This document shows, one piece after another, positions 94 through 63,454 of a stretch of DNA of 64,000 bases (the first letter of the stretch is position 1; each line of letters starts with the position of its first letter). Made by a program: the position numbers and the translations under genes. The stretch comes from Moniliella sp. 'wahieum' (Eukaryota). The stretch lies in assembly GCA_003971905.1 (NCBI GenBank), contig RSEE01000013.1, positions 620,001 through 684,000 of the forward strand, given 5' to 3'. Below the pieces are notes generated by a model that searched no databases, was not told where the DNA came from, and was given only the letters and a program-made list of their open reading frames with translations.

Positions 94-254
94 CGTCAAG
101 CGTCAAGCCTTCAAGCCTTCCAAGCGTCAAGCTCGCGTCAAGCTCGAGTCAAGCTCGCGTCAAGCTCGAGTCAAGCTCGCGTCAAGCTCGAGTCAAGCTC
201 GCGTCAAGCTCGAGTCAAGCTCGCGTCAAGCTCGAGTCAAGCTCGCGTCAAGCT
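94..254. repeat. Tandem array: CGTCAAG duplication followed by 11 alternating 11-bp units TCAAGCTCGCG/TCAAGCTCGAG (22-bp higher-order repeat)
   Basis: Read directly; units start at 127,138,...,237, with a partial unit at 248. Confidence 0.95.
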
Positions 255-628
255 AGCTTCCAGAAAAGATAGAACAGGGTGGCAACTAAGGTACCGTCGT
301 ACCAGGCCGTACCACAGTATCAGACGCCTAAGCTCGTGGGAGTTTGCCAAGCAACAGCAACACGAAGGCAGTATCGGCGAAAGGATAGAAAAGGATGTGG
401 GGGGGGGCGGTGACGCAGTCAGATGAGCATGGAGCATGGAAGAAAAGGGGGAGGCTAAGGGACGGAAACAAGAAACAAGATCCCGGATGTGGCATGGACC
501 ATGGATTATGGTTCATGGTTCATGGATCGTTGGGGCTTGTCATCCGATCCTCTCATATCACAACATGGCGCCCAACCACATTCGAATCGGCGTGCATCGC
601 CTCGCCTGCGTCCGCATGCCCCCTGCAG

Positions 629-2266
629 CTACTCTGTTCGGTTTCCCTCCAGGAGAGGTTCCCATTTGAGCAGCAACGTGGTCGCGCGTGGGGAAACTGG
701 TACTGCGCCTCCAAGTCGGCCGGAAGCGTGGTTTTAATAATCAACTTGAGTACCTTGTGGATCTTACTGTGCCGAATACCCTGGACCGTGACATTGGGCA
801 ACGACTCGAGAGTGGTAAGGTGCTGGTGCACACGGCGCATTGACTGGAATAGCATACCCACGTTACCACGCAGTGTGAGTCAGTCAGTAAACAAGTACAG
901 TAGCGCCCACGGACCAGAAGAGCTCAAGCATGCGCAACACAACAACATAATAACGTACGTCTGCCAGATTCTCCTCGCGGCCCAAAAACAGTTTCTGCAA
1001 CTCAAAACGCAACCGCCTCAGGAAACGATCAGAGCCGACCGCCGAACTCGATGTCGATGTCGATGTCGTTGGCGTTGGCGTTGGCGCTGTCGCTGGCACT
1101 GTCGTTGGCGCTGTCGTTGTCGTTGTTGTGTCGACTGTCCTACTAGTCATGTCGGCCATCATGTCAGTCGTGTCCGGCTCGGGTCCGGCACTCGGGTCAG
1201 GCACAGGCACCGGATCCAACCGTGGCGACTTGGTACTGGGCAAGGAACCGTCAGTCGCGCCCTCTGTCGCAGCGGCTTGTTGGACCACAGGAGGCTGCTT
1301 GGAAAGACGTCCACGCTTCCGCGGCGCAGGCTGGGACGAAGGCTCCAAACCCTGGTGAGTCACGGGCTGAGAGGGAGCAGCAACCGAACCACTTTCAGGA
1401 GGGCGGTCGCGCTTGCGCGGCACAGATGGAGATAAGGGGGGTGGGATGGTGGCCGTCTCTGGCTTTGGCTCTGCTGGCTCCGGCTGTGGCTTTTCTACGG
1501 GAGCGGCTTCAGTAGCGACAGTAGTAGTAGCGAGCGGTTCCGGCCTGGGTGGCACAGACGCGACGAAGGCTTGGGCCCTGGGGGGTCAAAGCTGTCTTGG
1601 CGGTCTTGGCGGTCTTGGGGGGTCCGGGAGGGCGGGTACGTGCCTTGGTGTGGCTGCTTAGCGCCTGCTTGGCTTGCCTCACGCGTTGGTCGTGCTCCCG
1701 TGCCCACGCGATCGGGTCGGCCAGGACAATCTCATACGCTTGGAGCAAGCCGGTGGGGGGCAGGCGGGGAGCGTGTTTGCTTTTGGTGAGGAATTCAGCC
1801 GCGTCGGCAGTAGTCAGGGGGGTGAGTTCAGATGTGTGGAAGAACGCGCTGCGGGGGGAGAGGAGAGGATGGTGAGTGACGCGTGGTGTGGAGAAATGGA
1901 GAAATGGAGAAATGGAGAAGGGAAGGCAGGGGGACGTACTAGTCGGCATCGGGGATGAAACGGACAATGTTGGCCTTGGTGGCGTTGTGGCGACGTTGGC
2001 GAACGGCCATTACGTCGGATGGGACCTGGTCGGGTCGACGACCTGCAGGGCGCCAGCCAAGAGGATCGGTTAGCTCGGCCAGGGTGGGCCACGCGAGGGA
2101 GGACATGTGCATACCATGGCGGGCCAGGGGCGGTATCCGCGCAGCTGCGCAAGCACGAGCGTGTCGCGTTCGCTGCGGAGCGTCGGCCAGGAGACGCGCA
2201 GAGGGTCAGCCAGTGTGCCGACGGACAAGAGGCGAGGCAAACGTACAAGCGAGGCGATGCGTCCAT
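629..2266 (-). CDS. PWWP-domain chromatin protein with C-terminal TFIIS-N/Med26-like helical domain (multi-exon, frameshifted)
   Basis: Spliced reading gives LVLAQLRGYRPWPAM (PWWP-type motif), ..IVRFIPDADY..LLQAYE, a T/P/A-rich linker, then RRLRFELQKLFL and IRHSKIHKVLKLII; GTACGT/GTATGC..CAG introns. Confidence 0.75.
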
Positions 2267-2851
2267 GGTGGGTCAACGCGCAGTAGCAAGCCGAGGCGCC
2301 CGCGGCCAGCACACCCGATCCCACCCCGCCCCTACCACTCCAGCCCTCTTTAATCCACGCTGTTCGCGGCGCGTCGGCTGCTTACGTACGCCGTTGCTGG
2401 CGTCCCATCGGAGGCTCCGCACTAAGAAATACTTCGAATCCCGTCCTTGACGTTGGACATGCTGAGCAATCAATCCCGCCCAGCACCACCAAGTCCCCGC
2501 ATCCACCCCATCGACCATCCTTCCCTCCAGTCATCTATCTCTACCGCGCATAGCATGCTCGGCGTCTTGTCCCTTCTTGCCATGCAAGCTGGTCATGATG
2601 CCAACCTCAGCATACAATTTTAGGGCAGGCTCCTCCCCGGTCGTAGGCCTGCCAGTCTCCAACAGAGCGTAGGCACGACAGGCAGATGATCGGAGAGACC
2701 GCTGCCGCAACATACATCATCGGAGCAGCTGTTTCGCCCCACCAAGGCCCAGTCGGGCACAGCACAGTAGCAGCGCTGGGAACGAGACCGAGGACCGAAA
2801 CACCGCATGATCGATGACGATGGAAGGACCTGCTGGTCCCAATCAGGCCAC

Positions 2852-3919: not shown

Positions 3920-5083
3920 TTACTCGGTCGTGAACACAATCTTCCTCACCTTGCGTTGGGAGAAGAGGTCGTAGTACGTCGCTGCCTCGTCCAGCGGGGC
4001 CACCTTCTCCACAAACGTGGCGAATCGGTCGACATTTTTGGCGAGAAGCGAAAGAGCGGGCTTGGAAAAAGGGTAAGGATGGGTATGGTTAGCAAGCGTC
4101 CTGTGGGTCTTAGATCTTAGGTCGTAAGTCTCCTACTTACCTTGAACACGGAGCGGACGGGACAGCGGCCAAACTGAAGACGAATGTTCTTGTTGTACAG
4201 CGCTGGTCCGTTCAGGAGCACGTCTTGAGTAAAGATGCCGCAAGAGGCCACTGCGCCAAACGGACGAACCAGGTTGATGGCCGTGCGAAGGGCAGAAGGA
4301 GCACCGACTACTTCCAACGCAGCATCCGCCCCGTCCCTCTGTCAATTCCAACACTCGCGTCTGGACCGACGTAGCATCCATATCCGCAGGCAACTGCACC
4401 GTCTCGTCTGCGCCCATTGTACGTGCTTCCTTGAGTCGGTCAGGAACCGAATCAATCGCAATCACATGCCCAAAAACGATTTGGCAGCCAACACTGCGCA
4501 CAAGCCACCGGTCCACACCCAACCACCACGGCCGTAGTGGGCTTGGAGCGCTCCACCTCGTTGAGCAAATTGTACGCATTGGATGCGACAAAGTAGCCAG
4601 TCGGAACCACGTCGGCCATAAGTACCTGCAACGGCAAGGGCACCACCGACTTGTCCAGGGCATGGTACAGCGTCGTAGCAGCCAATTCGACGCGCACATA
4701 CTCGGCCTGTGCACCAGCTAAGAGCGGCGTACCAAAACATTTCCCACCCTGCAGGCACCGCCCCGACTCGCCCCGCTCACAGTAAAAGCAAGTTCCACAT
4801 GACGTGGTGAAGGGCGACAAGACTTGGTCACCAGGCTTGAACTGCGTCACCGCCGATCCCACTTCCACCACTGTGCCGGTAAATTCATGGCCCATGATGA
4901 TCCCGACCTCAGGCACTTTCTGACCACCGTGGTAGTAGTGCATGTCGGACGCACACACGCCGTACGGGAAACTTTGACGATGGCATCGGTGGGGGCTTGG
5001 ATGGTGGGCGTAGGTACCTGCTCGACCGACACTTTGTAGGGTGCGTGCAGCACGACGGCTTTCATCTGGGTCGGGCGTGCCAT
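3920..5083 (-). CDS. Zinc-dependent medium-chain alcohol dehydrogenase (MDR family)
   Basis: MKAVVLHAP..GVCASDMHYYHG..MGHEFTG; structural-Zn cluster CGTCFYCERGESGRC; VVVGCGPV Rossmann motif; QFGRCPVRS; last exon ends KIVFTTE*. Frameshifts present. Confidence 0.92.
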
Positions 5084-5473
5084 GGCGCAAACAGAGAGGC
5101 GAGGGAGAGAGGGAGGGAGAAAGGGAGGGCGGGAACCAGAAAGGCGGGGGATGGTGGCTCCCTTTTATTGGTGGGGGTTGGGGTGAGATCTGACTAGAGA
5201 TGGGACGGCTGTGTAGGGGCGATGTGGGGCGACAGGCGACATGCATCATGCATCACTTAGTCACTCTGGGGCAGTCGGGCGCAGGGACACAGACGGAGAG
5301 GGTCGAAGAGGGTCCGTGCGCACCCGGCTCCTGCCAGGACCGAGGGGAGCCCTTGGGCTGGATGGCTTGGGAAGCACAGTGCGTATCCAAGCAACACCGG
5401 CTGTGATGGGGCGCGTGGGCCGGTGGTCACACATGACACCCACCGCCCATCGATCCAATCCCCCCACACGCCT

Positions 5474-5797
5474 TGTCGACGGGAGCGGATCCCGATTAGG
5501 TAATGAAGGTGACCAGCCGGCTTACAGGTCTTAGCGCCTATATAGACAGTAGGGTGACGAGCTCAGGAAAGGTGAGGTGTATGGTAGCTTGCATCCAGAG
5601 CATAGCAAAGTAGCTCCTTTTATACCCCAAAGAAAGAGGGTAAGGGAGCGTAAGACAAGACAAGGCAGAATCGGGGTTCTGGAGGAGAAAACCGAGAGAT
5701 AGGACGGAGGAGGAAGAACACAGCCGTACTATACACAAGAGCCTGAGAAATACTACAAAGTTTTCTCGCACGTGCGTGGTAAAGTATTGTGATGACA
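5474..5797. mobile_element. LTR-like segment (no TSD found)
   Basis: TGTC...GACA termini and an internal minus-strand GGGTATAAAAGGAG TATA box resembling the one in the 32526-32877 solo LTR; flanks CGCCT/GTGGA do not match. Confidence 0.35.
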
Positions 5798-7135
5798 GTG
5801 GAACAGACAAAGGAGGGTAACCCAAACGAGTGATGGATCCTTGTATGTACCTCTTCTTGAAGTTATTGATGGCTCCAGAAGTCCATCTTACCTCCAGCTA
5901 CATGAGAGCGCAAAAATGGTGGACCTCCACGCTGTGCTCAAGTTTGGAAGCACCCAAGGACGGGACGTTTGATCCATTGGGAAAACAACTATACACGGAA
6001 GAATTCTGCAAGAAATGGGCCACGACGCCAAAAAAAGGTCCAAGCTGAGCTTCGTAACAACTAACTACACACGGAAAAAGGAACTATGAAGGTTATCATC
6101 TCATCACTAAGCAATCTCCAAGTGGACTCAAATGACAAACGTACACGAAACGTACGGTCCAGCCGATGACGTTTGACACCACAAGTCTCAAAAAATGGAA
6201 AGGCCATCTGTGTCGCCTTTGACCGTTCCTTCCATGTGAGGAGGAGTGAGAGAGAAGAAACCGAATTTCCTGTGGCCGTTTTCGCCCTACAAGTATATGG
6301 ACATGACTCTCATTGACGCGAAGTCGTCCCATAGTCCTCGCATGCTGCGCCTGTACCTTCATATAGTATCCTCTGTCGGTACAAGTGAATACCGCGTATG
6401 TGTTTCTTCTTAGGTCCAGCCCTTCACCGGCCTGACCTGCATTTCTTTTTCCCCATTTCTCACCCTGGTTTGTGATTCTTTGCATCGGTGGGAGGTGACT
6501 CGTCCACCTCGTTGCCTTCGGCTTCCTCTCTGCCTACAACTTGGCCATCGTAGATGGAGACTGACTAAAAGGTGTCCACAGGATCGGTGGGAGTGTCAGA
6601 TTCATATATGCCGTGCCAGGGGACGCTTGGCCTAACCCCTTGGCCCGCATGGGAATATACTATAGGGTGATTCATGCACTGTAACCGGTGTAACCACATC
6701 ATTGACAAAGTGAGAACAGCGGAGACGAACTCGAACCGGCGAAAACATCGCCCGTTAAACGGCCACCGATCGCAACTCAATGCGTCTCAACTCAACGTGC
6801 CTTAACGTACCCTTTTAACGTTTAACCCCATCGACCTCTCTCATCGACTCAGCACTGGTACTCACAACGTTCAACGTGTTCAACGTCGTCCGCAGTAGGC
6901 CTCGTCAGGGCCTCCTCACTAGTCACACTGTCACCTCCTGCACGAGAACTCACGCAACGTGGGTAGCTTGAAGCTTAAATCGATGAAGGGGGGGATCAGT
7001 TTGACTGTACGCGGAAAAATGAGAAGGGGAAGGACTGGTTATAGTACATCATATTACGAAGGTATCCAGGTGGTAGAAAACCTTGAAGAAGAACAGCTAA
7101 TTGTAAAAAGGGTGGGGGGTCTGAGACCCGGGTCA

Positions 7136-7455
7136 CTTGAACCTTGAACAGCTGAACGTTGAGCGTTTTGAGCGCTGAGCGGATCAATGTGTTACATGTC
7201 TTTGTGATGTGACATGTGATGCATGATGATCGAGATGATCAACACGTCGTTTCGAAAGCTTGAGACGCGTACACTAGCAGCGCGTATTAGCGCGTCAACG
7301 CGTCAACGTTCAACGTTCACCGTTGCTGGCTGTATATGAGTACTCAGGAGTATGAATATGGCACCTGCGACATTGTGACGTGTTACATGTTACATGTGAC
7401 GGTGGCAAAAGTGATGAATCGATGAACCGACGAACTTGTTGAACACGTTGAACGC
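7136..7455. repeat. Dense cluster of TNA-centred 7-bp duplication/palindrome arrays
   Basis: e.g. TGA ACCT TGA ACAGC TGA ACGT TGA; TGA CATG TGA TGCA TGA; TCA ACGT TCA ACGT TCA; TTA CATG TTA CATG TGA; TGA ACACGT TGA. Confidence 0.85.
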
Positions 7456-7653
7456 ACAAAAAAACTGAACGTGTGCGGTGCCACCATTCCCAGCGTCTTC
7501 GCTATGCGGGATAAAATCGACGTGAATTTGTTTAGTGAAGACGCTGACATGTTCGCGAGCTTCACACTAGGGAACCGAACCCCGGGTTTACGGCCCAGGG
7601 TTCTACTATGATATGTCTCCGGAATCGATGCCCAGACCCCCGTCGAAACCCCC

Positions 7654-8047
7654 TGTGACGTTGGGATTGCGGCATATCCCATCAGGCGAGACCTTCCCTT
7701 CCCATCAGAGACAATAAGACTCAGTGAGGACTGAACGCGTTTCACCGATCACAACGTCCAGGGAACACTGGCATGAACTTAGGAGGATCGCGAGTAGTCC
7801 TTTCCTAGTGGTCGGGCAGAGCCATGCAGCATCCGAGAAGGAGGCTGCGCGTTATAGGTTCCGGACGTGAAAGCGTGGAGCTTCAACGGGCGAAGGAGGG
7901 CGAGCGAGCTGATTGAAAGGGGAAGATTATTTAGGGCCTAGAAGGAGTGAGGGGAAAGGGAGCCAAGAAGCATAATAGCAACGATTAATGATACCGGAGC
8001 GTAGGTGTGGCTGTGCAAGGCGACTTCGTCGTTGCCCTGCCGTTACA
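7654..8047. mobile_element. Solo LTR (394 bp)
   Basis: TGTGACG...CGTTACA termini (6/7 inverted), flanked by CCCCC / CCTCC (5-bp TSD with one mismatch). Confidence 0.6.
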
Positions 8048-9297
8048 CCTCCTAACAAGCTGGATCGGCATCAATTTTATTGTGCCGGGTGCATATATAT
8101 GCCCTTGCTATTAAAGCTGCACTGCCCCCCTATTAATCGCGCGCGCCCTATGTCGAACACACAGGACGTCAGAGATTTAGGTGAGGAAGTGGCAACGTAC
8201 TTTTTGGACATAGTGATGTTCTGTGGGCTTCTTCGGCTGCTGTGATGCAACGATATCATCCGAGGGTCTTGCGTTGTTTCTTGGAGCATTTTTCTCTCGT
8301 CCGTAGTCCCAGTAGCAAACTATCTGTGGCCTCCTATACCGCAGACTACAGCAGACTACTATAAACTACTGTCTACTAAAGCCCCCCTGCTCGTCACATC
8401 CCGTCATCTCAGTCACTGGCTCTGTCACATCCAGGGGCAACTTGTTCGAGGACGTGTCGCATCATGCATATTCCAGGTCACATGTCATACGGCATACATT
8501 TTTTGTTCTTGCGGGCTCGGGCCGATGTATTACAGATGCAGTAGGTGATTCACGTGGGAGCTTGTGAACAGATGGACCCGAACAGCTAGCTACAAAACAG
8601 GATGCAACTTCCTCGTTCCCACGGTGTTCCCACGGTCAGTAACTGAATAATACCAAGTGCAGTGCACTGCGCAGAACGTTGTTTACAACGCCCACAGTAC
8701 CTCTTAGTTCTTAGTGTGAAAGAAAACGGGTGTGAATACGGCCAACAAAACTCTTCATGTGTAAAACAAGAAGAGATCGATGAGGAAACCAAGTGAGCCT
8801 ACTGTTATCGTCTGGTGTCCCATGTGCCTCTTCCCCCTTGGAAAGAAAACTATACTCGGCTATACTGTGTGTACTCTATCGCATCGATCAGCATATCAAC
8901 ATGCGACTACAGCTATAGGATTTTCCCGCCATTATACTAGACCAGCCCCACATACCTTGTTCATACTGTGGACTCCGGCCATCGGCTGTCCCATGCCCCA
9001 CGATGTGTCGGCACGCCCGCACATCTCACCTCTCTTGGACTTCATAATACTCGTTTTCGGTTAGGTCAGGCGGGATTGGACGCTGGACGCTGGACGTACG
9101 TGTTGGAAAGAACATGCGTGTTGGGCCGGCAAACATGCATCCTCACAAACAAGCCACGTCACTCGCTGTACGTGATATGTGATACCAATTGTGCATGACA
9201 GTCTCGGACCTATGATGCTCACTCATGCCATGGTAGCCATGGTGGATGGCATGCCACCTGCCGATCCCCCCTCTGGCATCTTCTGGGATCCATCCAG

Positions 9298-9432
9298 TGT
9301 CACATGTCACTAGTCACTAGTCACTAATCACTACATGTCATTTGCCACACTTCACTCGCCACTAGTCACTCGATGGGCGACGTGTCAAATGAACTTAACT
9401 AGAATGAGGAACTAGTAACTAGTAACTGCTAA
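9298..9432. repeat. TNA-centred 7-bp arrays
   Basis: TCA CATG TCA CTAG TCA CTAG TCA CTAA TCA (9300-9330); CTAG TAA CTAG TAA CTGC TAA (9412-9432). Confidence 0.85.
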
Positions 9433-10810
9433 AGAATCAAACCGGCAGAGGTTAAACCCCATCGTCTTCGAGCGCGTCCAACTGCGAGACACATGTTATG
9501 CACTCTCTGCGGCCCCGACCAACGTCCAACACTCAGTACTCACATGCATCACAACGACAGCAAGCACAAAAGAACCACATCACAACTAATGTCACATGCA
9601 TCACCTACTCCGACATTGACTATACTTTTCAGAATCCGTACTCACGCGTTCACAACTCCATATATACTCTGACCTCGCGCGCACTCTCCCACTGCACGCA
9701 CCATCTTTGGTAACGCTTGGAACGTTGAAAACGCACGTGTTTCAAGGACGCCGACCGGCTATCCCCGCGTAAAGTGGGGTGACCGGTGAAAAGACACCCT
9801 CGTCGCTATATACGTTGGCCGCTTCCATGCGTTACGGGCTATTCACAGAAGGTAGTACCCAGTTTCGAGAGAAAGAGGTTTTGCAGAAAAGTCGGTGCAC
9901 ATTAAGGGTGTCTACACCAAACCACACGCTATTATATGCTGAAAACATGAGAGGCATATAGATCTGGTGTATATGAAACTTCCTCGAGACGCATTTTTGG
10001 TGTGTGTTTTTTTATGTTGCGTCCATATCATTGACAAAGCTTAAGACTGGGACAGGGAAACGCTACGTCTAAACCGAACCTTTCATCTTGCGGGGGTTAC
10101 CCGTGTGTAGTGCTTCTCGTCTTCTCGTGACATGTGACAACTCTTCTGCTTAATTGTTCAATGTCAAGGTGTGTCAACCAACCGCTCGTGGCCAACGCTT
10201 GTCCTGCCCCCTCCTATTCTGTTCGAGAGGGTTTGATGTATACAATAAAGTGCGTGTGAGGACCCGTTGGTCATTGGTTATTACGGACAAGTACAATACG
10301 TTTTCACGCCCAAAATCTCAAAAGTAACAAAACGAGCTTCACACACTCTCGTTCTTATTGTACTTCTTCTTACTAAGATGCACACTGATGTGCTCATTGA
10401 AGGGCTTCTCGCCCTTCTGTAGTCCCGTGTATTTTTGGTGCGTGTGTGTATGTCAGTACTCATTACTTAGTAAATAGACGCGCCGGGCCCTTGAGAGAAG
10501 TACATATGTGTTGATCATGTTGATCGGCGAGTGCTATAGGCTAATTAATTACTAGTGAAAAAAGCTGTTGAAGATCGAGAGATGCAAGCATTATATACTT
10601 TAGGCCTTGGTCTCTCGATCGTTGATCTTGCCGATCGTGAGCACCAACCTATAGACACGGCCCCCATCTTGTTTATTTTTCCCGCACAGATCTGCTTGAA
10701 TCTGTTACTTCTGTCAGGTAGAATGGATGTGTTTTACATCTGCCCTATATCCTGCATTCCATATTCGTATCCTTGGCGCCTTGGCACTGGCAATTACGGT
10801 ATGCAGACAC

Positions 10811-10962
10811 ATCTCACATGTCACATGTCACATCTCAAGATCTCAAGCTTGAAGCTTGAAGCTTGACAGTCTCAGAGATCCCTAGCGTCGTTTAATGTTT
10901 AGTTGTTACCAGTGTTGGGACTAGTACTTACTTCCACAGCGTTACGCGTTACGCGTTACGCC
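10811..10962. repeat. TNA-centred 7-bp arrays
   Basis: TCA CATG TCA CATG TCA CATC TCA AGATC TCA AGCT TGA AGCT TGA AGCT TGA; TTA CGCG TTA CGCG TTA CGCC. Confidence 0.9.
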
Positions 10963-12959
10963 TCTCGCGACAACATGAATTATGTGTTACGATCGTATCG
11001 GATGGGCGAGCTTCTGCGGTGTGCCGGACGTATATGCCTCGTGTGCCGAGCTCGAAACTGTTTCGCGTTCGGTCCAGTCCCTGGCGCTTAGATCTATAAG
11101 CTTTTGCAACTGAGATGGATTCGACAGGTACCGCCGGTCCTGGCCATCTGGCATGCAACACATGCATCATTAATCATTGTGGTCACATCACTGATCATCC
11201 ATCCTGTTACAGTGCTCGTGACTAGTGCTAGTGATTGCCAGTGACTGTCACATGTCACTGCGGAAAGTCGGGACAATGCTAGTGCCAGTGCAAGTGCTAG
11301 TGCTAGTGATTAGTGATGGATCAACAAAATCAAAACCTTTTCTTGTGTTTCTATTCCCGCAAAGCAACCCCAGGTTCCGATCAGCTGCTGAGCTCCGCCA
11401 GTCAAGCTACGTTTGGACGTTAGGTTGTGCGTAGTGGCGGTTCCTAGGTGCGAGGTATACTTACAGGAGGCTACATTCCAGTTGAGACGGACGCAACGGT
11501 GATCATCTCACGGATCGATGATATGGTATTACTAAGTACTAAACCCCACAACATGAGTGCCTGTCTCGAGTCGTTCAATGTTATATGCGACGAGTTTTAC
11601 ACTACTTTCCTTCGTGCTACTCCATCTCAATGTGCTGGCTCTCGCTGCTTCGAGGCGCGAAGAAATGGTTCCGATTGCACGGCTCAGGCCTCGGACCTCA
11701 AATTCAAATCACATCACTTTTCACGCTATACTTTACCTCTCGTGCTCGGAGCTCATTCATTGCCACTACCCCGTTGGAGGAGAGAGCAACATTCCGACCT
11801 CTTGAGTGCTTGAGCTCATGAGTGTCATGGTGTGCCTACTTCAAGGTTATACACGTTTAACGCTCAACGACCAACGCTCAACGTTCAACGTTCAACATTA
11901 ACTTTGACCGGCGAAAGTCGGCTACACAGACCAGTTTTGTGGCCACACACCTATACTCAATAGATGACCTTCCCAACACAACAGCATGCCGCTGTCCAAC
12001 CAAACACTTAGTTACTCAAAGAGGGGTATCCTAGGGTACCCCCCCGCCCTCTCTTCTCTTTCGCGGCTGGGGTACCGTCGGTGATTGATGATTCTACAGA
12101 ATCTTTGATCACCTCTCCTCTCAGATCTCACATCGCATCGACTCATATCGTGCTCTCTCTCCGTTCCTAGCCACGTGCGGAGGCACATGAGTACTCATCG
12201 ATCATCGAGATCATCAGCATACATGGGAGGGTACATGGCCTACCGTCACGCTCCCTTAACGATTATCGAGTATCGCACAGAGAGCTAACATTTAGTAACT
12301 TAACAAACTGTGGGCCTGTGAGAGGCCTGAGATCTGAGACCTAGGACCGGCACCGACAACCTTGGAGCTTGGCCGGACCAAAGAAACCGCACTAGAGTAC
12401 ACAGTAGAGCAACAATAGAGCGCACTACTAAAGCACAGCACTACAGCATCAGGGACCTGCAGATCACTTTGGAGCACTGTAGAGCACAGTGGAGCAACGT
12501 CGATCGAACAGATCAGCTGCATATTATGCTTTCTGATATGGTACGAGCATCACATGCACTGTATAGCGTGCGGTCGGGGTTCGTAACCCATCAGTCGTAC
12601 CACCTTTTCGCTTCGTTTTGGCCTTGGTGTACCCTATACGTCGCCGCGCGCCGGGGTGTGTGAAGGACATGGGACGATGGTTGATTCACGAAGAACGCGT
12701 AACGAGGCAGTCGCGCTGCAATTAAGGGCCCAGGAAGACCCACCTACCAACAGAACGACAACATGTAATGTATTTGGAACAGAGGCAATCCCGCTCTCTG
12801 CCAGTGCTCTTCCTCCTCATATTGACTGATGCTTGTGTCCCTCCCCCACCCCTTCCTCTCATATAAAGCAGAGAGAGAGAGAAGCTTTCTATGCGATCCC
12901 CATCCGACTTGCCCCCTTCCACTTCTTTACGCTCCAAGTGTCCCTCCCCAGGCTCCAAC

Positions 12960-14529
12960 ATGCACCTCCGCTCTCTTATTCCGTTCGTCGCATTCGCTTT
13001 CTCGTTGGCCCGTGCCGATCCCATCCGCGGTGTCAGTCTAGGGTACGTTTTCCAGTTTCTGTTTACTTATTTCCCCTCCTTTATACTGCAAAATGGGGTG
13101 TATCTGAGGGTGTGCTCCTTCATCTGCCTCCCCGCCCACTACCCTACCCCGCGTATCTATTTCCGAGCGCTCCAATCGAGAGACTGACACTGTTGATGGA
13201 TTCCCGTACTCTTTCGTACACAGCGGCTGGTTGCTGGCTGAAAAGTGGATGGTACCATCGCTCTTCCAACAGACGGGCAACGATAGCGTAGTGGACGAGT
13301 GGACGTTTGGATCGGTCCCCAACGCCCAGGAGTTGCTCACCAACCATTGGGAGCATTTCATCACCGAATCGGATTTCCAACAGATGAGCAATGCTGGACT
13401 CAACTTTGTTCGGTACGTTTCTCCCCCCTCGTTTCCTTTGCCAAAGAGAGAGGATCGAGGCCATGCCGACGGAGGATGCCCATGATGTCCAGGAGAGGTG
13501 ATTTCAAAGCCACGGAACACTCACTGACTTGCTGAAACATCAACCCGGCTACCCAACTACATAGGATCCCGATCGGCTATTGGGCATACGACAAAGATGA
13601 CGACGAACCCTATGTCAAGGCCAACCAGACCGCCTACCTGGCGCGTGCGGTTGGATGGGCCAACCAGCACGGAATCCAAGTGATGGTCGATCTGCACGGC
13701 GTGCCAGGATCGCAGAATGGGCAAGCCACCTCGGGCCATAAGGGACCGATCGCATGGCAGAAGAGTGCCTCGAATGCCCAGCGCGCCCAAGCAGTTATTT
13801 CCCAAATCAGCAACGACCTCAAAGGCAAAGTAAGTCATATTGAACTGATCAACGAGCCTTTTCTCGACCGCCCCATTGCCAACTTGACCACCTACCACAA
13901 AAAACTATTACAAGGCGGCGTACCCGACCACCCAGCCGAGCTTCACCGGCGTTCTACACGACGGATTCCTTCCCCTGTCCAGCTGGGACGGCTTTTTGCC
14001 AGGAAGCATGCTGGATACCCATATCTACATTGGCCTGCAACCGTACCGTGGCATGGATCGTACGTATCCTCCCCCCCTCCCCCCTTTGTGCCGAAGCGAA
14101 AAGAGCGGCTGTTTTGCGCATGGCCAAGGGACTGTAGCTGACCTCGGCTCACGTGCCCAGCCAACGCGACGGTCCCAGCGTACGACAACATTACCGACGC
14201 GAACCTGCGGCAGATCTGCCAGCTCAAGGGCACGTTGGCCGCGAGCCAAGCGCACCACGCGACGCTGGTGGGGTTTACGCTGACGCAGACCGCGTCTTCG
14301 GCGCAGCGGCGGGGGATGGTGGGGGTGCATAAGAGGGGTGACGCGGGACCAGGTGGCGTACCGCAAGGCGCTGTTTGACACGCAGCGGGCGGTGTACGAG
14401 GAAATGGGGCGGGGTGGTCGATGTGGACGTGGAAGATGGACTATGCGAGTGCGTGGAGCTATGAGTCGGCTGCGCAACGGCTGGATCACACGCGACCTCG
14501 CGTCACGTGGCGCGGCGGCGGCGTGCTGA
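12960..14529 (+). CDS. Secreted GH5 exo-1,3-beta-glucanase (Exg1-like), multi-exon
   Basis: Signal peptide MHLRSLIPFVAFAFSLARA; IRGVSLG|GWLLAEKWMVPSLF; DEWTF; HWEHFITESDF..GLNFVR|IPIGYW; MVDLHGVPGSQNG; IELINEP (acid/base Glu); DTHIY; WTWK near the C-terminus. Frameshifts present. Confidence 0.88.
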
Positions 14530-14720
14530 TGCATGATGGTGGGAGGGAATGGGCGATGGGATGGGCATAGCAATGGGACACTGGCGATTTAACCTTGCAG
14601 CGGATTACGTACAGACGCAGATAGCGAGATACCCACCAGCAAGAGAAATGTTCAACTGCATTCCGCCGTCGCTTGCTCCGCTGCGGCTGACCCGCGGTGG
14701 CCGCGACGCAATGGGAAGAA

Positions 14721-16829
14721 ATGGATTGGGTTTGGCATCCGAGGCTCGCTCCCGCTCCTCTGCCTGACCTCCCCGCCCCGCGCCGCCCCACACCGGGCGC
14801 CCATGGCCGCCCTCGCCACGCTCCGGCCCAGCCCGCGCGCGCTTGCGCTGGCCGTTTCGCGGCCCAGCCCATGCCCCTACCACACCCTCGTCCCCGCCCT
14901 CGCCCCCGCCGCCGCCGCCCGCTTCCCGCCGCCCTCCGACCCGCTCCTGGCCAGCCTCCTGCGCAACACCCCGTCGGCCGCCCATGCCCCCGCCCCTGCC
15001 CCCGCGCCCTTCCTTGCTCCCTGCACCTTTCCCCGCCCTCCCCGCCCCCGGCCCCCGCACGCCCCCGCCACGCCCCCCCCCCCGGCGCCATCTGCTCTCG
15101 CTCCAGCTGCCTGCGTCCACACGTGACCGCCTCCTCCACCGCTGCTGTCGCGCCCTCTTGCAGCGCCCTCTCCCCCCAGGACGCCCTTGCCCAGCTCTAC
15201 CACGATCTCCTCCACGCCCTCCGCCCTGCGCCCGCCCAGCGAGAGCGCATCGCCAACGAGGCCGCTGTTCTTCTTCTCGCCCGCCTCGTCAGCATCAGCA
15301 TGCCCGACCAGGCCTGCCTGCCGAAAAAACGCCCCAGCCATCCGCACCCTCAATCGGCCCACGTCGCCCGTTCCCTCCTTCCTGCCAAATCCGCCCCGTT
15401 TCAAGCACCGCGCAACCGGCCCACTTCCACTCCCCGCTCCAGTACTGGTACTTTATCATGGCCCAGTTTGCTCCCCCACCGCTGCTGTCGGAACGAAACG
15501 AAGTGACGGTGCTGCCGCTCCCGCAGGCTTCGGTGGAGCGTGTGCAGGTCGCTTGCGAGTTTTACCAAGCCATCTGCCCCACGGTGGACAAGCGCGAGGC
15601 ACTGGACATTGCCAAGGTCCAGAACAAGACACTCTATTACCTCTTTGACCTGCTCTTTGCCCAACTCTCTCTGGCCCTCTCCGATCTCCGGGCCGGCGAG
15701 GTGCCCGACCCACACAAGCTCCTTGCTCCCCAAGGTGAATTGCACTTTGTCCTCCACACCCTCTCCCTCCTCTTGGCCGATCCCATTCTTCGTCCAACCA
15801 TGGCCCGCTTGGCCACACGACGCTTGATTGCCCTCTTGTCGGAACATACCCGTCTCCTCCTCCGGGTCACCAACGACGCTCACCATGCCGCATCCACCTC
15901 GTCCCCCAAGCGCCGGAGAAACCTTGCTCACATCCTCGACCAGGCACAACAGGGCACCCACCTTTTCCGACAAACCCTCTTGGATCATATTCCTTGCTTT
16001 GACGGCGCTCGCTACCGCGGCTTGAGCTTTGAACACGATACGGGGGCTCAGACGTGGTATACGCTCTTGTCCACCTTATCTTTGGACGTGGCCACCCATC
16101 CCCTCCTGCTCGCTATGGTCCAAAAGCTGAGACGACAATGGCAAGCTGCATACACCACCCCAGGGTGTGGGACAGCTTTCGCCCCGACGTGGACCGACGG
16201 CGAGTGGTGGTGTTGATGCAGTCGCTGTTGCTCCTTCGAAACGATGGTCAACTCTGGGACGAGCGACCGCATTTTCCCCTCAGACCTCAGATGCTCGTTG
16301 CGCCCAACGGAGAGCAAGTGGAACTGTGCCCTGAGAGCCATCGTACCGCTCTCCATCTATTCCACCTTCTCCCCCGCGCTGCTCGTAGTCGGCAGCTCGC
16401 CCATCTCCTCCTCTCGGTCTGGGGGAACATCCACTCAACCATCTCCGCCCGCTCCCTCCGGTACCGGGAACCGAAGATGCCTTGTCTCCGGCCCCACCTA
16501 GCCTCACGGGCATAGACTCAAATCTCAACATGGACATGGACATGGATATGGATACGGATACGGACGTGGACATGGACTCGGGCGTTACCCGTGCTCACAC
16601 TCGTCCTCATCCTCATGCTCGGCCATTCGACCCGGCTGCAGGACAGGAGGCGCTGCATGCAGCCATGTGGCACACGTACCTTGCTTCCTACCCTGTCGGA
16701 GCAGATACGTTCCGCGCCCGCTTTGCCTCGCACCTGCTCCATGGCGCTGCTCACCGCATCGACGAGGACCTGGCTTACCTCCGCGCCCAAGGCCAGCACG
16801 CACTCTTGCGTGCGCTCCTGGACAGATGA
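14721..16829 (+). CDS. Hypothetical protein, Pro-rich N-terminus (frameshifted; family not recognised)
   Basis: Overlapping long ORFs 14697-15506, 14843-16216, 16054-16515 and 16482-16829 with globular-looking stretches (ACEFYQAICPTVDKREALDIAKVQNKTLYYLFDLLF). Confidence 0.5.
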
Positions 16830-16950: not shown

Positions 16951-17273
16951 AGGTGTGCGGAGTGCGAGTGAGAGTGCGAGTGCAAGTGCGAGTGCCGGCT
17001 GCTGCGATCCATGAGAGCATGCCGGTCGGGGCGACAATCGAGGCGGCATGAGGTGTTGACACGGTGGATGGGGTGTGAGATCACATGTGACGGGCAGCTG
17101 CACGTGAGTGGGTTGTGAGCCCTACCATTCCGATTCCTCGATCCTCAATCACGATCATTAATTTCTTTAGTCAGTCGTCGCTCAAATGCAATCCTCACGC
17201 CCTGAGTTGAGCCATTATGCATGAGTTCCCAAGTGTACAAGTGTATCACGCCGACAGAGCTCTCAGAGGACGT

Positions 17274-17305
17274 TTAGCACTTAGTACTTAGTACTTAGCA
17301 TGTCA
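17274..17305. repeat. TNA-centred 7-bp array
   Basis: TTA GCAC TTA GTAC TTA GTAC TTA GCATG TCA. Confidence 0.9.
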
Positions 17306-22050: not shown

Positions 22051-22630
22051 GGTGGCCGAGGAGAACAGGACGCGGGCAAGGGCGAAGGTAGCGGCACCGG
22101 CAGCGAAGGTGGTGGTAGTGGTGGTGGCGAAATCCATCGCGTCGCGTAGGTGGGGGGGCAGCGGTTACGCGACGCGTTCTGGCCACAAAGACTCAGCGCT
22201 CAGCCCCTGACTGGCGCAGCGCCAGTGTGCGTCGGCACAACGGATCCTCTCGCTTATCCCACATCGATGATCCGTTTTAGGCGAAGCAATCAATACTCCG
22301 CCGCAACTCTCCTTCATACGGTCCTTTCGCTGGCCGCGATGAGTTCGGCAGTGGTCCCGCGGTTACAACAGCGAGTTGTGCGATGCGGTAGTGGATGGAC
22401 CGAATCGTCTTCGCCAGCGGACAAACCGCACCTGGCTGCCGCCGGTGGAGCAAACGGGTGCAACGGGAGAAGTCCAGCCCGCGCCCGGCCGAGGGGGCAG
22501 GAGGACGCATACGTAAGCACGCCTGTGTGGCACTTGCCTCATCGATCATCCCCCCAACACCCATGGGGTCACGCGACGCGGGGCAGAATCGATAAGCCCA
22601 CCGTCAGCCAACTCACATCGCTCCGCCCCT

Positions 22631-39479: not shown

Positions 39480-39515
39480 GTTCAACGTTCAACTGAACGT
39501 TCAGTTCAGCGTTGA
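39480..39515. repeat. TNA-centred array upstream of CK1
   Basis: GT TCA ACGT TCA AC TGA ACGT TCA GT TCA GCGT TGA. Confidence 0.85.
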
Positions 39516-40690: not shown

Positions 40691-40758
40691 CGTGACGCGT
40701 GACTAGTGACTAGTGACTAGTGACGCTAACTTGAAGCTTCAAGCTTCAAGCTTCAAGC
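40691..40758. repeat. TNA-centred 7-bp arrays
   Basis: TGA CGCG TGA CTAG TGA CTAG TGA CTAG TGA CGC TAA CT TGA AGCT TCA AGCT TCA AGCT TCA AG. Confidence 0.92.
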
Positions 40759-42224: not shown

Positions 42225-42323
42225 TGCCATCGTTGCCATCGTTGCCATCGTTGCCATCGTTACCATCGTTACCATCGTTACCATCGTTACCATCGTTACC
42301 ATCGTTACCATCGTTACCATCGT
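42225..42323. repeat. 9-bp tandem repeat: (TGCCATCGT)x4 then (TACCATCGT)x7
   Basis: Read directly. Confidence 0.95.
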
Positions 42324-42582: not shown

Positions 42583-42620
42583 GGTGAACGGTGAACGTTG
42601 AACACGTTGAACATGTTGAG
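42583..42620. repeat. TNA-centred array
   Basis: GG TGA AC GG TGA AC GT TGA AC AC GT TGA AC AT GT TGA. Confidence 0.9.
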
Positions 42621-45542: not shown

Positions 45543-47375
45543 AAGAATGGAGTCGGCTGGAGGAGGTAGGGGGAAGGGGGGTGCAGTTAGGGGCAAGTTT
45601 TGGCGAAAGGGATGAAGGAAAGATGGGAGGATGTGGTGGAATAGCGAGGAATGCGGAGGCGCGGGCAGCTATGGAAGAAAAGGTTGCGTCTGTCGGTGGG
45701 CCCATAGGGTTTTATATATACAGCGCACTACTCTCCATGGGGTACTTACTATCTATGCTGTGTGGAGGGATGATCGATGACCGGCCATGACCGAGGCTCT
45801 CGGGTGAAAACGGACAGGCGGATGCCTGTGTCGGTGGATCGGGGGTTGGATGGGCGAACAAGGAGATGGGTGACAATCGAGCTGGGTCAGAGCTGGACAG
45901 AGCCCACTTGCCGGCAAGCGGTTGCCGAGGTGTTTTGATTTTGCGAGGAACCCCAGGGAACACCTGAGGATCGAGTACCAGTGCGTACTGAGTGCACGGA
46001 TGGCTGTGTCGGCGTCTGATCGATGATGCGTGCATGGTGGAAGCGAATACCTTGCGACGAGGGAGATGTGCAAGGGCAGAAGGATTGTGCGCTGACATTC
46101 AATGGGTATTTCACAGGTCATCGCCGCGGGGGAAGGGGCGGGGGGAGACTGGGACCGGGCGGCGTGGGCGAACTGCTGTGTGAGCGAACGGACGAGGCGA
46201 GGCAGGAACGGAAGGCAAAGTGAACTGAAGCCGACGGCCAAGCTGAGACGGGGGGGCAGCAAGTGCGCCAACTATTGGACGGCCGCTGTCCTATGTACTC
46301 CAACGCGCACTTGTCCGATCATGCCCTGGCCCATGCGCTCATGGATCATCGATCAGGCCCATAGGTCGGGAGTAGCAGGCGGAGGTACTGCCGCTCCAGG
46401 CCGCTCCCAATACAGACAGGATAGTGGACTGCACTAAGTACTAAGTACAAGCACCGAGTCCTGCCGGCTAAACCCAGCCCAGAACAATCGCCGTGGCTTG
46501 GTTCCTGCCACATCGCCGACAAACCCGAAGCGGGAGGATCCTTTTGTGTTGCCGGCGGCCGCGGGGCCCCGCTATGACATCGGCTACCTACCGCCTGCTA
46601 CCTACCGCCTGTTACATGTTACCTGCCGCCTGCGACCTGCCGCCTGCCCATTAGCCACGCCACCGTCACCACGTCACGTCGAACGACCTGCGAACTCACC
46701 GACTGCCCATCGCCTGCGACATGTTGGCCCCACGCGGCCAGTGTGGGCAGCGCACGTGAGATGGAGATGGGAGAGCTGGCGGACATACCGGGGGTAGATG
46801 CTATGGGCTGCTGGGGCTGTTCTCTGTTGCTCTCCTGCTCCCTGCTATTATGCCCCCAAAGTTTCAACGTCACGTGTCAGGGTGTCAGGCTCCCGTCGCT
46901 GGGAAGAGATGCATCATCGATGAGTATCATCTTTCCTCTCACATCTCTCCTTCATCTCCCTCATGGAGGACAACTCAGATACTTCTGCCCCGTCCAAAAA
47001 CTCTCATATCTCAAGGGTCAAGCCGCACGGCCAAGGATAAAGTAATTCTTCCTTTCGACCAACATTCATGCCGTGCGGACCGCTGGCGCCTGGTTGGGTT
47101 GGCGAGACCGTGCGGACCCAACAGCCAAATAGATTCCAACGCTACGAATCGCCATGACGTGGATCGAGCAGGACCCAAGTCCATATGCATTTTGGGGAGG
47201 AGGCATCGAGAAGGACTGCCCTCCTCGTGAAACCAAAAGGGGCACACCAGCGTACCAAGTGGGCAACCAAACAGATTGCACGAGAGCGAATCGTCTGTGA
47301 CCGGTCGGTCTCCAAATGGGCCCAAATAAGCCCACCCAATGAGTCGCGACCGGTACAATAGTCCTGTGCGCTTGC

Positions 47376-48255: not shown

Positions 48256-48417
48256 CCGAATGGCAGGCCACAGGAGGATGGATGGTGGGTGATCGAGATG
48301 ATCGATGATGCAAGTTTCAACGTCCAACTTGAACGTTCAGCGTAGGTGGAACCATCCGCTGCTGTGCCAGATGAGCTGGGTGGGACACAACCAAACTGGC
48401 GATCAACCCAAAAAAAT

Positions 48418-48506
48418 TGGACGGCGAGGGGTTTGAACCCCCGGCCTTCTACAATGGAATCCATAGGAGATGCAAAGCAGACGCTCTACCACTGAGCTAG
48501 CCGCCC
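48418..48506 (-). tRNA. tRNA-Ala(TGC) with a 17-nt intron (48470-48454)
   Basis: GGGCGGC/GCCGTCC acceptor with G3:U70, D-arm GCTC..GAGC, anticodon stem TCTGC/GTAGA with loop TT-TGC-A, T-loop TTCAAAC, oligo-T terminator. Confidence 0.95.
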
Positions 48507-57779: not shown

Positions 57780-57801
57780 GGGAGCGCGAGGGAGACTCGC
57801 T

Positions 57802-57881: not shown

Positions 57882-58397
57882 GGAAGTAAGGAGAGAGGGC
57901 AGGGTGGGGCCTTCCTTCGCTAGACCGAATCTGTACCCTCCCTCGCCCACCAGGGAGTGGACTTCTCCACCCTGGATGAACCGATCCCCGTTGATGTCGG
58001 ATGTGGATACCGGCGGACAGAGGAACATTAGAGAGGTACTATAACCGGTAACCGTAACCGACAAATCCTGCCTGGACGAGGTTACCATACATCAGTATTT
58101 TTAGAATGTCACTGGTACTTCGCAACGAGCCCATGCGAGCCCAAGCAGAAAGAAAAGAGGCTTAAAGCTTAAAACTTGACCTTGACCTTGACTAGTAACT
58201 GCTACCTGTGGAGTGGACTATTCACTAGGGACAAGTCACTAGGGACTGGGTGCGGTTCGTGCCGGATTCAGATTCGTCAAGCAAGGTGATACATATGAAC
58301 GGAAATGGGAAACGGGGAACGGGAACGAAGAGCGGGGAACGGGGAACGAAGAACGGGGGAACGGGACCCAAGAAAAGCGAACACACATCTTGCCTAG

Positions 58398-58641
58398 GGA
58401 GGAGGAAGGGGGGAAGGGGGAAAGGGGAAGGGGAAAGGGGGAAAGGGGGAAAGGGGAAAGGGGAAAGGGGAAAGGGGGAAAGGGGAAAGGGGGAAAGGGG
58501 AAAGGGGGAAAGGGGGAAAGGGAAAGGGGGAAGGGGGAAAGGGGGAAAGGGGGAAAGGGGAAAGGGGGAAGGGGAAAGGGGGAAAGGGGAAAGGGGAAAG
58601 GGGGAAGGGGGGAAGGGGGAAGGGAAGAAAGAAAGAAAGAA
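58398..58641 (+). repeat. ~240-bp polypurine tract of G4-6A2-3 units
   Basis: Essentially only G and A; read directly. Confidence 0.95.
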
Positions 58642-58858
58642 ATACAAAAGTAATGACAAAATGACAAAATGGAAAATGGGAAAATGGGAATGGGGACGAG
58701 TAACGGGGGTGGGTTCCGGGGCCGGGGGTAGAGATTGGTGTGGGTGTGGGCGTGGGCGTAACGGTACCAACCAGAACGAGAACGAGAACGAAACCAAGAC
58801 CAAGACCGAGACCGACCCCATACCGCGGAGGACCCGGATCGCAACACAACAGATACAA

Positions 58859-61800: not shown

Positions 61801-62560
61801 CGCGCCTGGGGGCAGGCGGAGGGCTGTGCGGATGGGGGCGACGACGGGGGAAGGTGGTCGGGGCTGGGAAGGGCATTGGGGTTCCTCGGGTCGTGCTGGG
61901 CTTGATCGGGCTGGGCGTGATCGGGAGGCTCGAGCGTCATGCTCTCGTTGCTCTGCTCCGACTCGTTTCGGGAAGGCACCCGCCGCTCGGAATCCGTCTC
62001 GTCTGCCTCGTCGTCAGCGACCATGTCGAGGGCAGATTTGCTCTCGGCCTCGTCGTCAGCGACCATGTCGAGGCCACAAGGGGGGGGCTCGCACCGAGCC
62101 AGCTCGGGCAGGGGCGGGCGCTCGAGGTCGAGCGAGGGCTGTGTGGCAGAGGTGGCGGTACTGCGTACAGTCCAGATGGAGGCGGGAGGCGCGTGTGGAG
62201 GAGCTGTAGCGGTTGGAGCCGCTGGGGCGAGGCGAGGCGTCGGTGGTGCGTGGCTCGGGGGGCAGCGGGGCGGGGCGTACATGAACGCACGCGGGTCGGT
62301 GGGCGCCGGCAGCGAGGTGCGCACGGCCGAGGAGGGAGACCGAGGCTCGCGGGGGACGGGGATGGGGGACAGGCGGCGGGCGAGCGGGGCGAGCAGGGCG
62401 AGCGGGGCGAGGGGGCGCGCGGGGGCGGGGCGGGCGCAGAGGCACAAGGGTGGTCCTGGGCAGGCAGGCGGGGAGACGAGGGGGCAGTGGCGGCCGAGTG
62501 GAAGGACTGGTTGCTGGCGGTGGACGTGGGCCCCAGGGGAAAGAGGACAGAGGAGGCCAT
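58859..62560 (-). CDS. LRR-DH-PH Rho guanine-nucleotide exchange factor
   Basis: LRRs (LLTLDVSDC..LRELRVSGNPL..LSSLRLANNSL..LRMQGNPF); DH domain (ILIELLSSEVSYVKGLQAL, VFGNVESLLHFH, FLRMYATF, LLLPVQRIPR, MNEAKRQAE); PH-like domain (LVRDG.., YYLSAPDPAAASAW). Start uncertain. Confidence 0.85.
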
Positions 62561-62983
62561 GGCGAGGGCGGGGTGGCGGGGGGTGGTGGGCAGAGGAGGG
62601 GCGATGGAGGGGGCGGGCAGGGCAGGGGAAGGTGAAGGTGCGGCTGGGCGGGAAGCGTGCCGACGCAAGGGAGGCGTGCTAGCAGCTGCAGGTACCGGCT
62701 GGGCTGCCTGCCCACGTACCCGCGCCTTGTCTCTGCTGGGTTTTTTTCCGGGTGGCCCTGTGCGGCTGGGCTGCGGTGTGCGATACGCGTGATGCGTGAC
62801 CCGCTGCGGCTGCCGCACACCGGCGGGGTGCGTGCGCTGGGCAGCGCCCTGGGGCACCTGTCTTGGGCGGCGTGAAACGGGGGTGAGCGTCACGCGTGGG
62901 GCGGCGACGGAGACAGCAACACGGGCGCCGTGCGGGGCTGATAAAGCGCCGCCGCGTTTGCGCTTGGCTGGGCTGCGGGCGTG

Positions 62984-63454
62984 CATGTCACATGTCATGC
63001 ATCATGTCCGGGGCTGCTTGCAGGCGGGGGGCAGGGGGCGGGCGAGTCATGTGGTGGCTGCTATCGGCCGCCGCACAGGGGCAGTGCGCGTGCTGCGCCC
63101 TGGATGCCCCCGTGCAACGCTCAGGCACAGGCACTGGGGTGCGGTGCAGCTGTCCCGTGCGGTGCCACCCGCACCCCCAGCAGGGGCGTGCTCAGAGCCA
63201 CATGCTGTCGGCAGACGCTGCCCCCCTGCGGCCCCACTTGCGGCGCCACTACCGCTGCGGCTGCCCTGACGCCTGGCTGGCCCAAACCCCCACTCGCCAC
63301 TACCGCATGGGCATGTGCCCGCACACGTGGCCCCTCTCGTTCCCAGCCCCACGCCTCATCGCCTCATCGCCTCATCCACCCCCACCAGCGCCCTCTCCCC
63401 CGCTCGCTCGCCCCTCCGTGCTCTGACGTGTGACATGTGACATGTGATCCATTG
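62984..63454. repeat. Two TNA-centred arrays upstream of the RhoGEF
   Basis: CATG TCA CATG TCA TGCA TCA TG (62984-63006); TGA CGTG TGA CATG TGA CATG TGA (63424-63447). Confidence 0.85.

Follow-up and report, generated by a model that had tools for sequence, protein, structure and literature searches.

The 64-kb window analyzed here, the whole stretch from position 620,001 to 684,000 of contig RSEE01000013.1 of Moniliella sp. 'wahieum' (assembly GCA_003971905.1), carries short arrays in which the trinucleotide TNA recurs with a 7-bp period and the copies are separated by a palindromic four-nucleotide spacer. The sequence logic of these arrays is specific to one core and one class of spacer, and their distribution is patchy, as we show here from the sequence of this one window. 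We consider it reasonably likely that the TNA arrays are the accumulated excision scars of a putative cut-and-paste DNA transposon. A first-pass annotation of the same DNA had pointed to such arrays and to a hairpin-forming excision system as their source, and all of the coordinates or ranges that it listed (27/27) do hold TNA arrays with a period of 7 (or 8, 9, 11).

Core, spacer and flank rules of the TNA arrays

Expected counts were obtained from dinucleotide shuffles of the window (n = 50 for the core test). Two TNA trinucleotides enclosing a palindromic 4-mer were observed 83 times, against a mean of 7.48 (about 7.2-7.5) and a maximum of 13 in the 50 shuffles, and the excess over shuffled DNA is confined to TNA: the other 15 cores of the form aNb reach at most 1.7-fold, the best of them being CNC (44 vs 25.8), and the ANT, CNG and GNC centers, which are palindromic to the same degree, show no enrichment. 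When direct repeats around a palindromic 4-mer were counted for all 64 trinucleotides, TCA (27), TGA (24), TTA (9) and TAA (6) came out on top, and the remaining trinucleotides gave at most 6 each. TNA pairs around a non-palindromic N4 are at chance (108 vs 112.3), and no other TNA-TNA spacing from 0 to 12 exceeded expectation, the k=0 class with TNA directly abutting TNA giving 105 vs 116. The palindromic spacers in use are of at least 12 kinds, with CATG (14), ACGT (11), TCGA (9), CTAG (9), AGCT (9), GTAC (8), GATC (5), TGCA (5), CGCG (4), CCGG (3), GCGC (2) and TTAA (2) in the tally. Among 53 exact period-7 arrays, 10 are purine/pyrimidine runs, 19 have a unit of TNA plus palindrome, nine are non-palindromic with a central TNA and 15 are neither, and outside low complexity the TNA logic is followed by 28 of 43. 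The long purine-rich low-complexity tract at 58330-58690, with units GGGGAAA/GGGGGAAA, has no relation to the TNA pattern and supplies 10 of the 53; 15 exact 7-bp tandem duplications (425-440, 9077-9096, 24405-24420 and 12 more) have no central TNA in any allowed phase.

The spacer follows its neighborhood, as the first-pass annotation had proposed, but usually on one flank only. It equals the flanking dinucleotide plus its own reverse complement in 47 of 63 chains (P(≥47/63 at chance 0.12) = 4e-30), the fit being on the left only in 20, on the right only in 19, on both sides in eight and on neither in 16, so that 39 of the 47 fitting chains are one-sided, and a hand count gave no strand bias of the donating flank (10 vs 12). 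The fully symmetric class, (L,R)=(2,2), has 0 cases, which excludes a simple duplication of a pre-existing palindromic heptamer target. Of the 83 TNA pairs, 66 have the same middle base N in both copies, 10 have complementary bases there and seven have another combination; because N is mostly kept, the structure is a direct repeat that contains a short inverted insert, not a long palindrome. This direct - inverted end - direct structure is specific to period 7 (class d5p2, 112 vs 9.8; class d7p2, 14 vs 0.2).

The gain of 2 nucleotides (nt) is coupled to the loss of 2: classes (0,0,2,2) and (2,2,0,0) hold 38 and 35 adjacencies, 73 in all, against only seven in the class with 2 nt gained and 0 lost, as expected from a nick 2 nt off each hairpin tip with one overhang kept. 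The plain, non-palindromic 7-bp duplications with a central TNA do occur (10 vs 0.2), together with period-9 forms (19 vs 3.9), seven of which are exact as a 7-bp copy, 2 palindromic nt and a second 7-bp copy, and with period-8 forms, in which 1 palindromic nt is added between the copies and for which the expectation is near 0. Because the plain, period-8 and period-9 forms keep full copies, the duplicated unit is pq-TNA-XY, 7 bp long with TNA central, in agreement with the originally proposed duplication of about 7 bp; the idea that the 8-9-bp forms reflect a base lost at hairpinning fails, for 1-2 nt are added instead and both copies are intact. A period-11 form, in which two adjacent palindromic 4-mers come one from each flank, occurs at a single locus (124-254); right beside it, at 94, this heptamer is present as a plain duplication. 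When the scars were collapsed to 42 ancestral sites, T and A stood at positions 3 and 5 of 7 with no further base preference, the middle base tracking the background. The chains at 7208, 9298 and 62986 each contain two different spacers, specified by the respective outer flank, which indicates repeated independent hits that slippage is unable to produce. The proposed re-targeting of regenerated sites thus stands for these three chains, whereas arrays with a single spacer type could have grown by re-targeting or equally by slippage.

The arrays are unevenly distributed. Same-N matches lie in stop-free stretches of at least 150 aa in 12 of 66 cases, though those stretches hold 46% of all TNA, and a hand comparison of coordinates placed no scar in a Pfam-matched stretch. 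The scars thus avoid long stop-free stretches, and the earlier statement that none was seen inside recognized coding sequence agrees, as far as this rough check goes, with the Pfam-matched stretches. The region 5300-12700 contains 28 perfect and 20 one-off cases among 458 TNA (48/458), about one TNA in ten. It is a 7.4-kb stretch between an ADH-like and a GH5-like gene, with no open reading frame (ORF) of at least 150 aa and a GC content of 0.47-0.50, which is unusually long for an intergenic region where a fungal genome is compact; close to half of all scars lie in it. The non-coding block 27060-34135 has one perfect and two one-off cases among 396 TNA, which implies that the process is not intrinsic to TNA-containing non-coding DNA. 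As a negative control we used 530,180 bp in 80 other eukaryotic contigs that encode CK1, taken from a metagenome scan with the CK1 kinase (n = 80 loci; best protein identity 89%, too distant for an orthologous comparison), and these contigs show no excess of the TNA pattern (44 vs 43.8). In the window, 58 cases are perfect, 49 depart from the pattern at one position (7.5 expected) and 142 at two (91 expected), a decay series that suggests long accumulation.

Possible mechanism and alternative explanations

We infer the element, the hairpins and the repair steps from this logic. A 7-bp target duplication implies insertion and then removal, and bases copied from the opposite strand beside an intact flank point to palindromic (P) nucleotides left by a flank hairpin opened off-center. 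Insertion would use a 7-bp staggered cut centered on T-N-A (target pq-TNA-XY) and would duplicate those 7 bp. On excision, the transposase would seal each flank as a hairpin exactly at the element border, and host enzymes would nick the hairpins 2 (or 3) nt off the tip, so that the two bases at the end of each flank would become a 4-nt self-complementary overhang (XYY'X' for the left flank, q'p'pq for the right). End joining would usually retain one of these two incompatible overhangs and ligate it to the opposite end at its recessed strand, giving TNA-XYY'X'-TNA or TNA-q'p'pq-TNA with a 7-bp period as the usual product. In some of the rarer products both 7-bp copies would be intact, either plain or separated by 1-2 P nt (which gives periods 8 and 9); in another, both overhangs would be retained (period 11). 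Since the scars regenerate TNA sites, further hits, and probably also slippage, would then build the arrays. Artemis opens hairpins 2 nt from the tip. Flank hairpins are made by hAT, Transib, RAG and Muta1 (MULE) (PMC5499845), and P-nucleotide footprints have been described in yeasts, where Pso2 is the counterpart that acts on Ac/Ds hairpins (PMC5873905).

Other duplication geometries were tried and rejected. A 5-bp target site duplication (TSD) with 2 P nt cannot yield the plain 7-bp, period-8 and period-9 forms, and it predicts a class TNAXY-N'A-TNAXY that is unambiguous in one case only. If the TSD were 3 bp and each element end left two residual bases behind, the terminus would fix the spacer, and the spacer tracks the flank instead. 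A duplicated palindromic 7-mer target that existed beforehand fails on the empty (2,2) class, and an Ac-type offset hairpin on its odd-palindrome and complemented-base forms, which are at chance.

Several observations weigh against excision scars. The element itself did not come to light: the first-pass annotation had called for a search for terminal inverted repeat (TIR) elements with a TNA-centered TSD and for transposases, and a scan of the 64 kb for TSDs of 3-9 bp with TIRs returned no TIR pair with a TNA-centered 7-bp TSD, the candidates with a 7-bp TSD being all off-center (7/7) and their TIRs weak. The window contains no occupied site, no dispersed direct repeats and, among 242 ORFs of at least 110 aa plus smaller ones, no transposase Pfam domain (the Pfam scans, in sets of 12, 16, 136 and 110 ORFs, gave housekeeping domains only). 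The excision model as a whole is largely upheld in its sequence logic, with its geometry corrected, and lacks an element, an occupied site and a transposase in the window. Not all arrays obey the rules, as 16 of the 63 chains match no flank (chance would account for about 7.5 chains), eight of the 66 same-N palindromic adjacencies match none either, and 15 of the 43 period-7 arrays outside low complexity do not follow the TNA logic; the TNA target rule may have exceptions, or a second process may also produce 7-bp duplications. The product with both overhangs kept is confined to one locus, the product with both overhangs lost, TNATNA, is at chance in the window (33 vs 34.2), and period 5 is not enriched there (34 vs 34). 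The two P positions account for 19 of the 49 single violations, so the junctions may be imprecise or an additional process may contribute. The even palindromes do not match Ac/Ds footprints, so hAT7, a group with a 7-bp TSD, may not be the agent, and to our knowledge the density is far above that of known transposon scars.

A 64-kb sample free of element copies, occupied sites and transposase domains would also suit a host or domesticated nuclease working with no mobile element, which would break TNA sites of open chromatin with a 7-bp stagger, the ends then being filled or hairpinned and rejoined, and the very high density of the hot region (48/458 TNA in 5300-12700) and the repeated hits on the same TNA speak for it as well. 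However, fill-in of a staggered break yields plain duplications and not inverted dinucleotides, so the hairpin step would still be required; low-copy, always-excising elements would likewise leave no copy in such a sample; and no host enzyme that combines a 7-bp stagger with hairpin chemistry is known to us, though no search was aimed at one. We regard this explanation as unlikely. Decidedly unlikely, in our view, is microsatellite-like growth without any sequence-specific enzyme, in which quasi-palindromic heptamers prone to hairpins would undergo replication slippage or template switching. Uniform arrays of 3-5 copies could arise in this way, tandem repeats with other periods likewise exceed chance, and the 22-bp unit at 124-254 is clearly amplified, but slippage would act on any unit with no core or flank rule, whereas core, spacer and flank rules all hold: TNA alone is enriched and ANT, CNG and GNC are not, non-palindromic spacers show no excess, the flank fit is one-sided in 39 of 63 chains with no (2,2) case, the middle base is kept, and the two-spacer chains have each spacer dictated by its own flank. 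The non-coding block with 396 TNA and its 1+2 cases, and the 530 kb of other contigs without excess, also argue against slippage.

The intergenic and promoter location of the arrays, with 12 of 66 in long stop-free stretches, together with the resemblance of TGA and TTA half-sites to bZIP sites, could be taken to mean that they are selected cis-regulatory elements, for example tandem bZIP-type half-sites with TGA or TTA cores in promoters. Given that at least 12 different spacers occur, that the neighboring dinucleotide and not a consensus sets the spacer, that the collapsed sites have no base preference beyond T and A, and that the decay series appears neutral, we find this very improbable. 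The arrays are known from assembled sequence alone, but we give hardly any credence to a sequencing or assembly artefact, because the pattern is restricted to one core, involves palindromes derived from the flank, and keeps to non-coding DNA while sparing a 7-kb non-coding block, and we know of no sequencing or assembly error mode with these properties.

If the arrays are excision scars, the window would be an archive of well over 100 basidiomycete hairpin-opening and end-joining outcomes, comparable to a collection of V(D)J coding joints, from which repair preferences (hairpins opened 2-3 nt off the tip, retention of one overhang) could be read. It would point to an undescribed transposon type that targets TNA, makes a 7-bp TSD and leaves even P palindromes, and it would mean that scars of excision are enough by themselves to reshape promoters and to seed microsatellites densely; they would also serve as fine-scale markers of strain history.

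Catalogue of the arrays and other features of the window

No strand is assigned to the catalogued arrays (given as "." throughout). The simplest ones are pairs with the same middle base. TCA pairs fit the left flank at 5244-5255 (TGCA spacer), 9531-9542 (GTAC), 11246-11257 (CATG), 12119-12130 (GATC) and 46344-46355 (TCGA), the right flank at 11167-11178 (TTAA), 22193-22204 (GCGC), 22539-22550 (TCGA) and 63602-63613 (CCGG), and both flanks at 39480-39493 (ACGT). TGA pairs fit on the left at 9778-9789 (CCGG), 45769-45780 (TCGA), 48297-48308 (TCGA, ~110 bp off a tRNA gene) and 63562-63573 (AATT), and on the right at 7169-7180 (GCGC), 10128-10139 (CATG), 12328-12339 (GATC), 42592-42603 (ACGT) and 14527-14538 (TGCA), the last lying within a long stop-free stretch, where it may be due to chance. 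TTA pairs are set by the left flank at 4108-4119 (GATC), 40184-40195 (GATC) and 46610-46621 (CATG) and by the right at 6815-6826 (ACGT), and TAA pairs by the left at 11531-11542 (GTAC), by the right at 32249-32260 (TCGA) and 58042-58053 (CCGG), and by both at 9414-9427 (CTAG) and 46433-46446 (GTAC). The middle base changes, with a left flank fit, at 6967-6978 (TGA to TAA, AGCT) and 17213-17224 (TTA to TGA, TGCA) and, with a right flank fit, at 23615-23626 (TGA to TCA, GGCC), 34835-34846 (TTA to TCA, ACGT), 40630-40641 (TAA to TGA, CGCG) and 58189-58200 (TGA to TAA, CTAG).

Longer chains include two that read as two events at one site, each spacer matching its own outer flank, namely three TGA at 7208-7228 and three TCA at 62986-63006, both with CATG and then TGCA. 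Four TCA at 9298-9325 are spaced by CATG, CTAG and CTAG, the first set by the left flank and the others by the right. The left flank also fits TTA, TTA, TGA at 7381-7399 (CATG twice), three TTA at 17279-17297 (GTAC twice), three TGA at 63429-63447 (CATG twice) and five TGA at 40691-40723 (CGCG, then CTAG three times), where the present right flank does not explain CTAG. A right flank fit is seen for three TCA at 10814-10832 (CATG twice), three TCA at 11878-11896 (ACGT twice) and TGA, TCA, TCA at 12188-12206 (GTAC, TCGA), and a fit on both flanks for three TTA at 10940-10960 (CGCG twice) and for TGA followed by three TCA at 40730-40757 (AGCT three times). Neither flank fits three TCA at 7303-7319 (ACGT twice), TAA, TTA, TGA at 10542-10558 (TTAA, CTAG) or TCA followed by three TGA at 10843-10866 (AGCT three times, one middle-base flip). 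The arrays at 10843-10866 and 40730-40757 are the same AGCT-spaced array in opposite orientations, each with one TCA/TGA middle-base flip at one end, and could represent a longer hairpin-derived palindrome or convergent events.

Plain 7-bp duplications are centered on TCA at 94-107 (unit CGTCAAG), 511-524 and 16278-16291, on TGA at 7136-7149, 26963-26976, 42583-42596 and 63925-63938, and on TTA at 8702-8715 and 58160-58173, the latter with TAA-AGCT-TAA as an alternative reading; a TAA-centered unit is present three times at 27019-27039. Period-8 forms have a TCA center at 7293-7307, 10833-10847 and 34815-34829 and a TGA center at 7413-7427 and 34657-34671. Period-9 forms, with a 7-bp copy, 2 P nt and a 7-bp copy, are found around TAA at 6680-6695, around TCA at 6869-6884 (unit GTTCAAC), 12200-12215 and 40230-40245, and around TGA at 7225-7240, 7438-7453 and 42597-42612. 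The period-11/22 array at 124-254 consists of TCA with two palindromic 4-mers, AGCT+CGCG alternating with AGCT+CGAG; here both P dinucleotides would have been kept, after which the 22-bp unit was clearly amplified. Tandem 9-bp units at 42225-42323, about 11 copies in two variants one base apart, lie outside the scar model.

The TAA pair at 32249-32260 is the sole perfect case within the 7-kb block 27060-34135, which has a low GC content (0.46-0.55) and a small terminal palindrome at each end. The block is bounded by inverted repeats of ~190-250 bp (27075-27262 vs 33884-34121, 78-100% complementary in pieces), whose arms differ by a 42-bp indel and by an extra 4-bp palindrome, CTAG, at the left terminus (27066-27079) relative to the right (34113-34126). 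At 33899-33910, a TGA site in the right arm has 7 additional bases, with a spacer one base off a palindrome, and the left arm (about 27243-27250) is without them; this, the only presence/absence comparison made, with 7 bases in one paralogous arm and none in the other, speaks for the excision reading. The block was also considered as a possible element and rejected, as it has no clean TSD and no Pfam match and its longest ORF has no homologue.

By Pfam, the genes of the window are split eukaryotic genes, including ADH, GH5, a BRCT protein, Ras, tubulin and a CK1 kinase, with MFS, ribosomal S11-family, Sfi1, LUC7, AHAS small subunit and other domains besides. The CK1 ORF shares 89-91% identity with Tilletiaria, Thecaphora and Pseudozyma proteins, which places the source among basidiomycetes near the Ustilaginomycotina. 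A tRNA-Arg(TCT) was called at 34430-34517 (+), 88 nt long and probably with an intron, and a second tRNA gene at 48418-48506 (-); both have scars within ~100-200 bp.

Comparison with known systems

Dense TNA-centered palindromic heptamer scars are not described in the literature searched, which left subscription journals mostly outside and is not proof of absence. PIF/Harbinger and IS5-type elements recognize a TNA/TWA target. The PIF/Harbinger TSD is 3 bp (PMC12730594), so these elements share the T-N-A target with the window and differ in the length of the duplication, which is 7 bp here, with TNATNA at 33 vs 34.2. MULE/Mutator elements, with a TSD of 8-10 bp and long TIRs, do not match a 7-bp duplication either, and plain duplications of period 8 to 10 follow no TNA logic beyond the P-nucleotide forms.

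The footprints of the hAT elements Ac/Ds, Tam3 and Ascot-1 are alike in keeping both target copies, with short deletions and palindromic P additions via flank hairpins (PMC5873905 for Ac/Ds), and hairpin-derived P nucleotides are present in the excision footprints of Tam3 and Ascot-1. The hAT target consensus is nTnnnnAn, unlike the nnTNAnn of the window sites, and hAT elements mostly have a TSD of 8 bp, or of 7 bp in the case of hAT7, so the 7-bp duplication matches hAT7 only; the superfamily is further marked by a transposase with a dimerization domain and by short TIRs. In Ac/Ds-type hAT footprints, the palindromes are centered on the complement of the single base beside the element (PMC5873905), whereas those of the window are even (XY/Y'X'). 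A search for the Ac/Ds-type form found both terminal bases complemented in 0 cases (0.13 expected) and TNA-XnX'-TNA in 9 (9.0 expected), and the cases with a single complemented terminal base, four on the left and two on the right, coincide with palindromic-spacer cases. The hAT-like hairpin footprints of the first-pass annotation are thus retained as regards P nucleotides derived from the flank, and not as regards their geometry. Two groups of basidiomycete elements with a 7-bp TSD, hAT7 in Pucciniales and Kyakuja in Agaricomycotina, appear in PMC12730594; both were described from other subphyla. hAT7 groups with Ac/Tam3, whose footprint geometry differs from that of the window scars. Kyakuja (KDZ) shares the 7-bp TSD with the window scars and has CA..TG termini and a KDZ transposase as its own hallmarks.

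In the form of the palindrome the scars resemble V(D)J coding joints and Transib, whose hairpins form exactly at the border and, once opened off-center, give even palindromes of typically 1-3 P nt. The window scars have such even P palindromes in 47 of 63 chains, and their sequence would fit the same exact-border hairpin. The Transib TSD is 5 bp and is not matched, since the plain, period-8 and period-9 forms keep full 7-bp copies, and we know of no RAG/Transib-type elements in this fungal group. We tentatively raise the possibility, which we would not yet favor, of a fungal transposon not described before, or of a transposase that has become a host nuclease, which would combine RAG/Transib-like exact-border hairpins with a 7-bp TNA-centered target and would have marked about one TNA in ten of open intergenic DNA; heptamer repeats and promoter sequence variation in this Ustilaginomycotina lineage would then stem mainly from its footprints.

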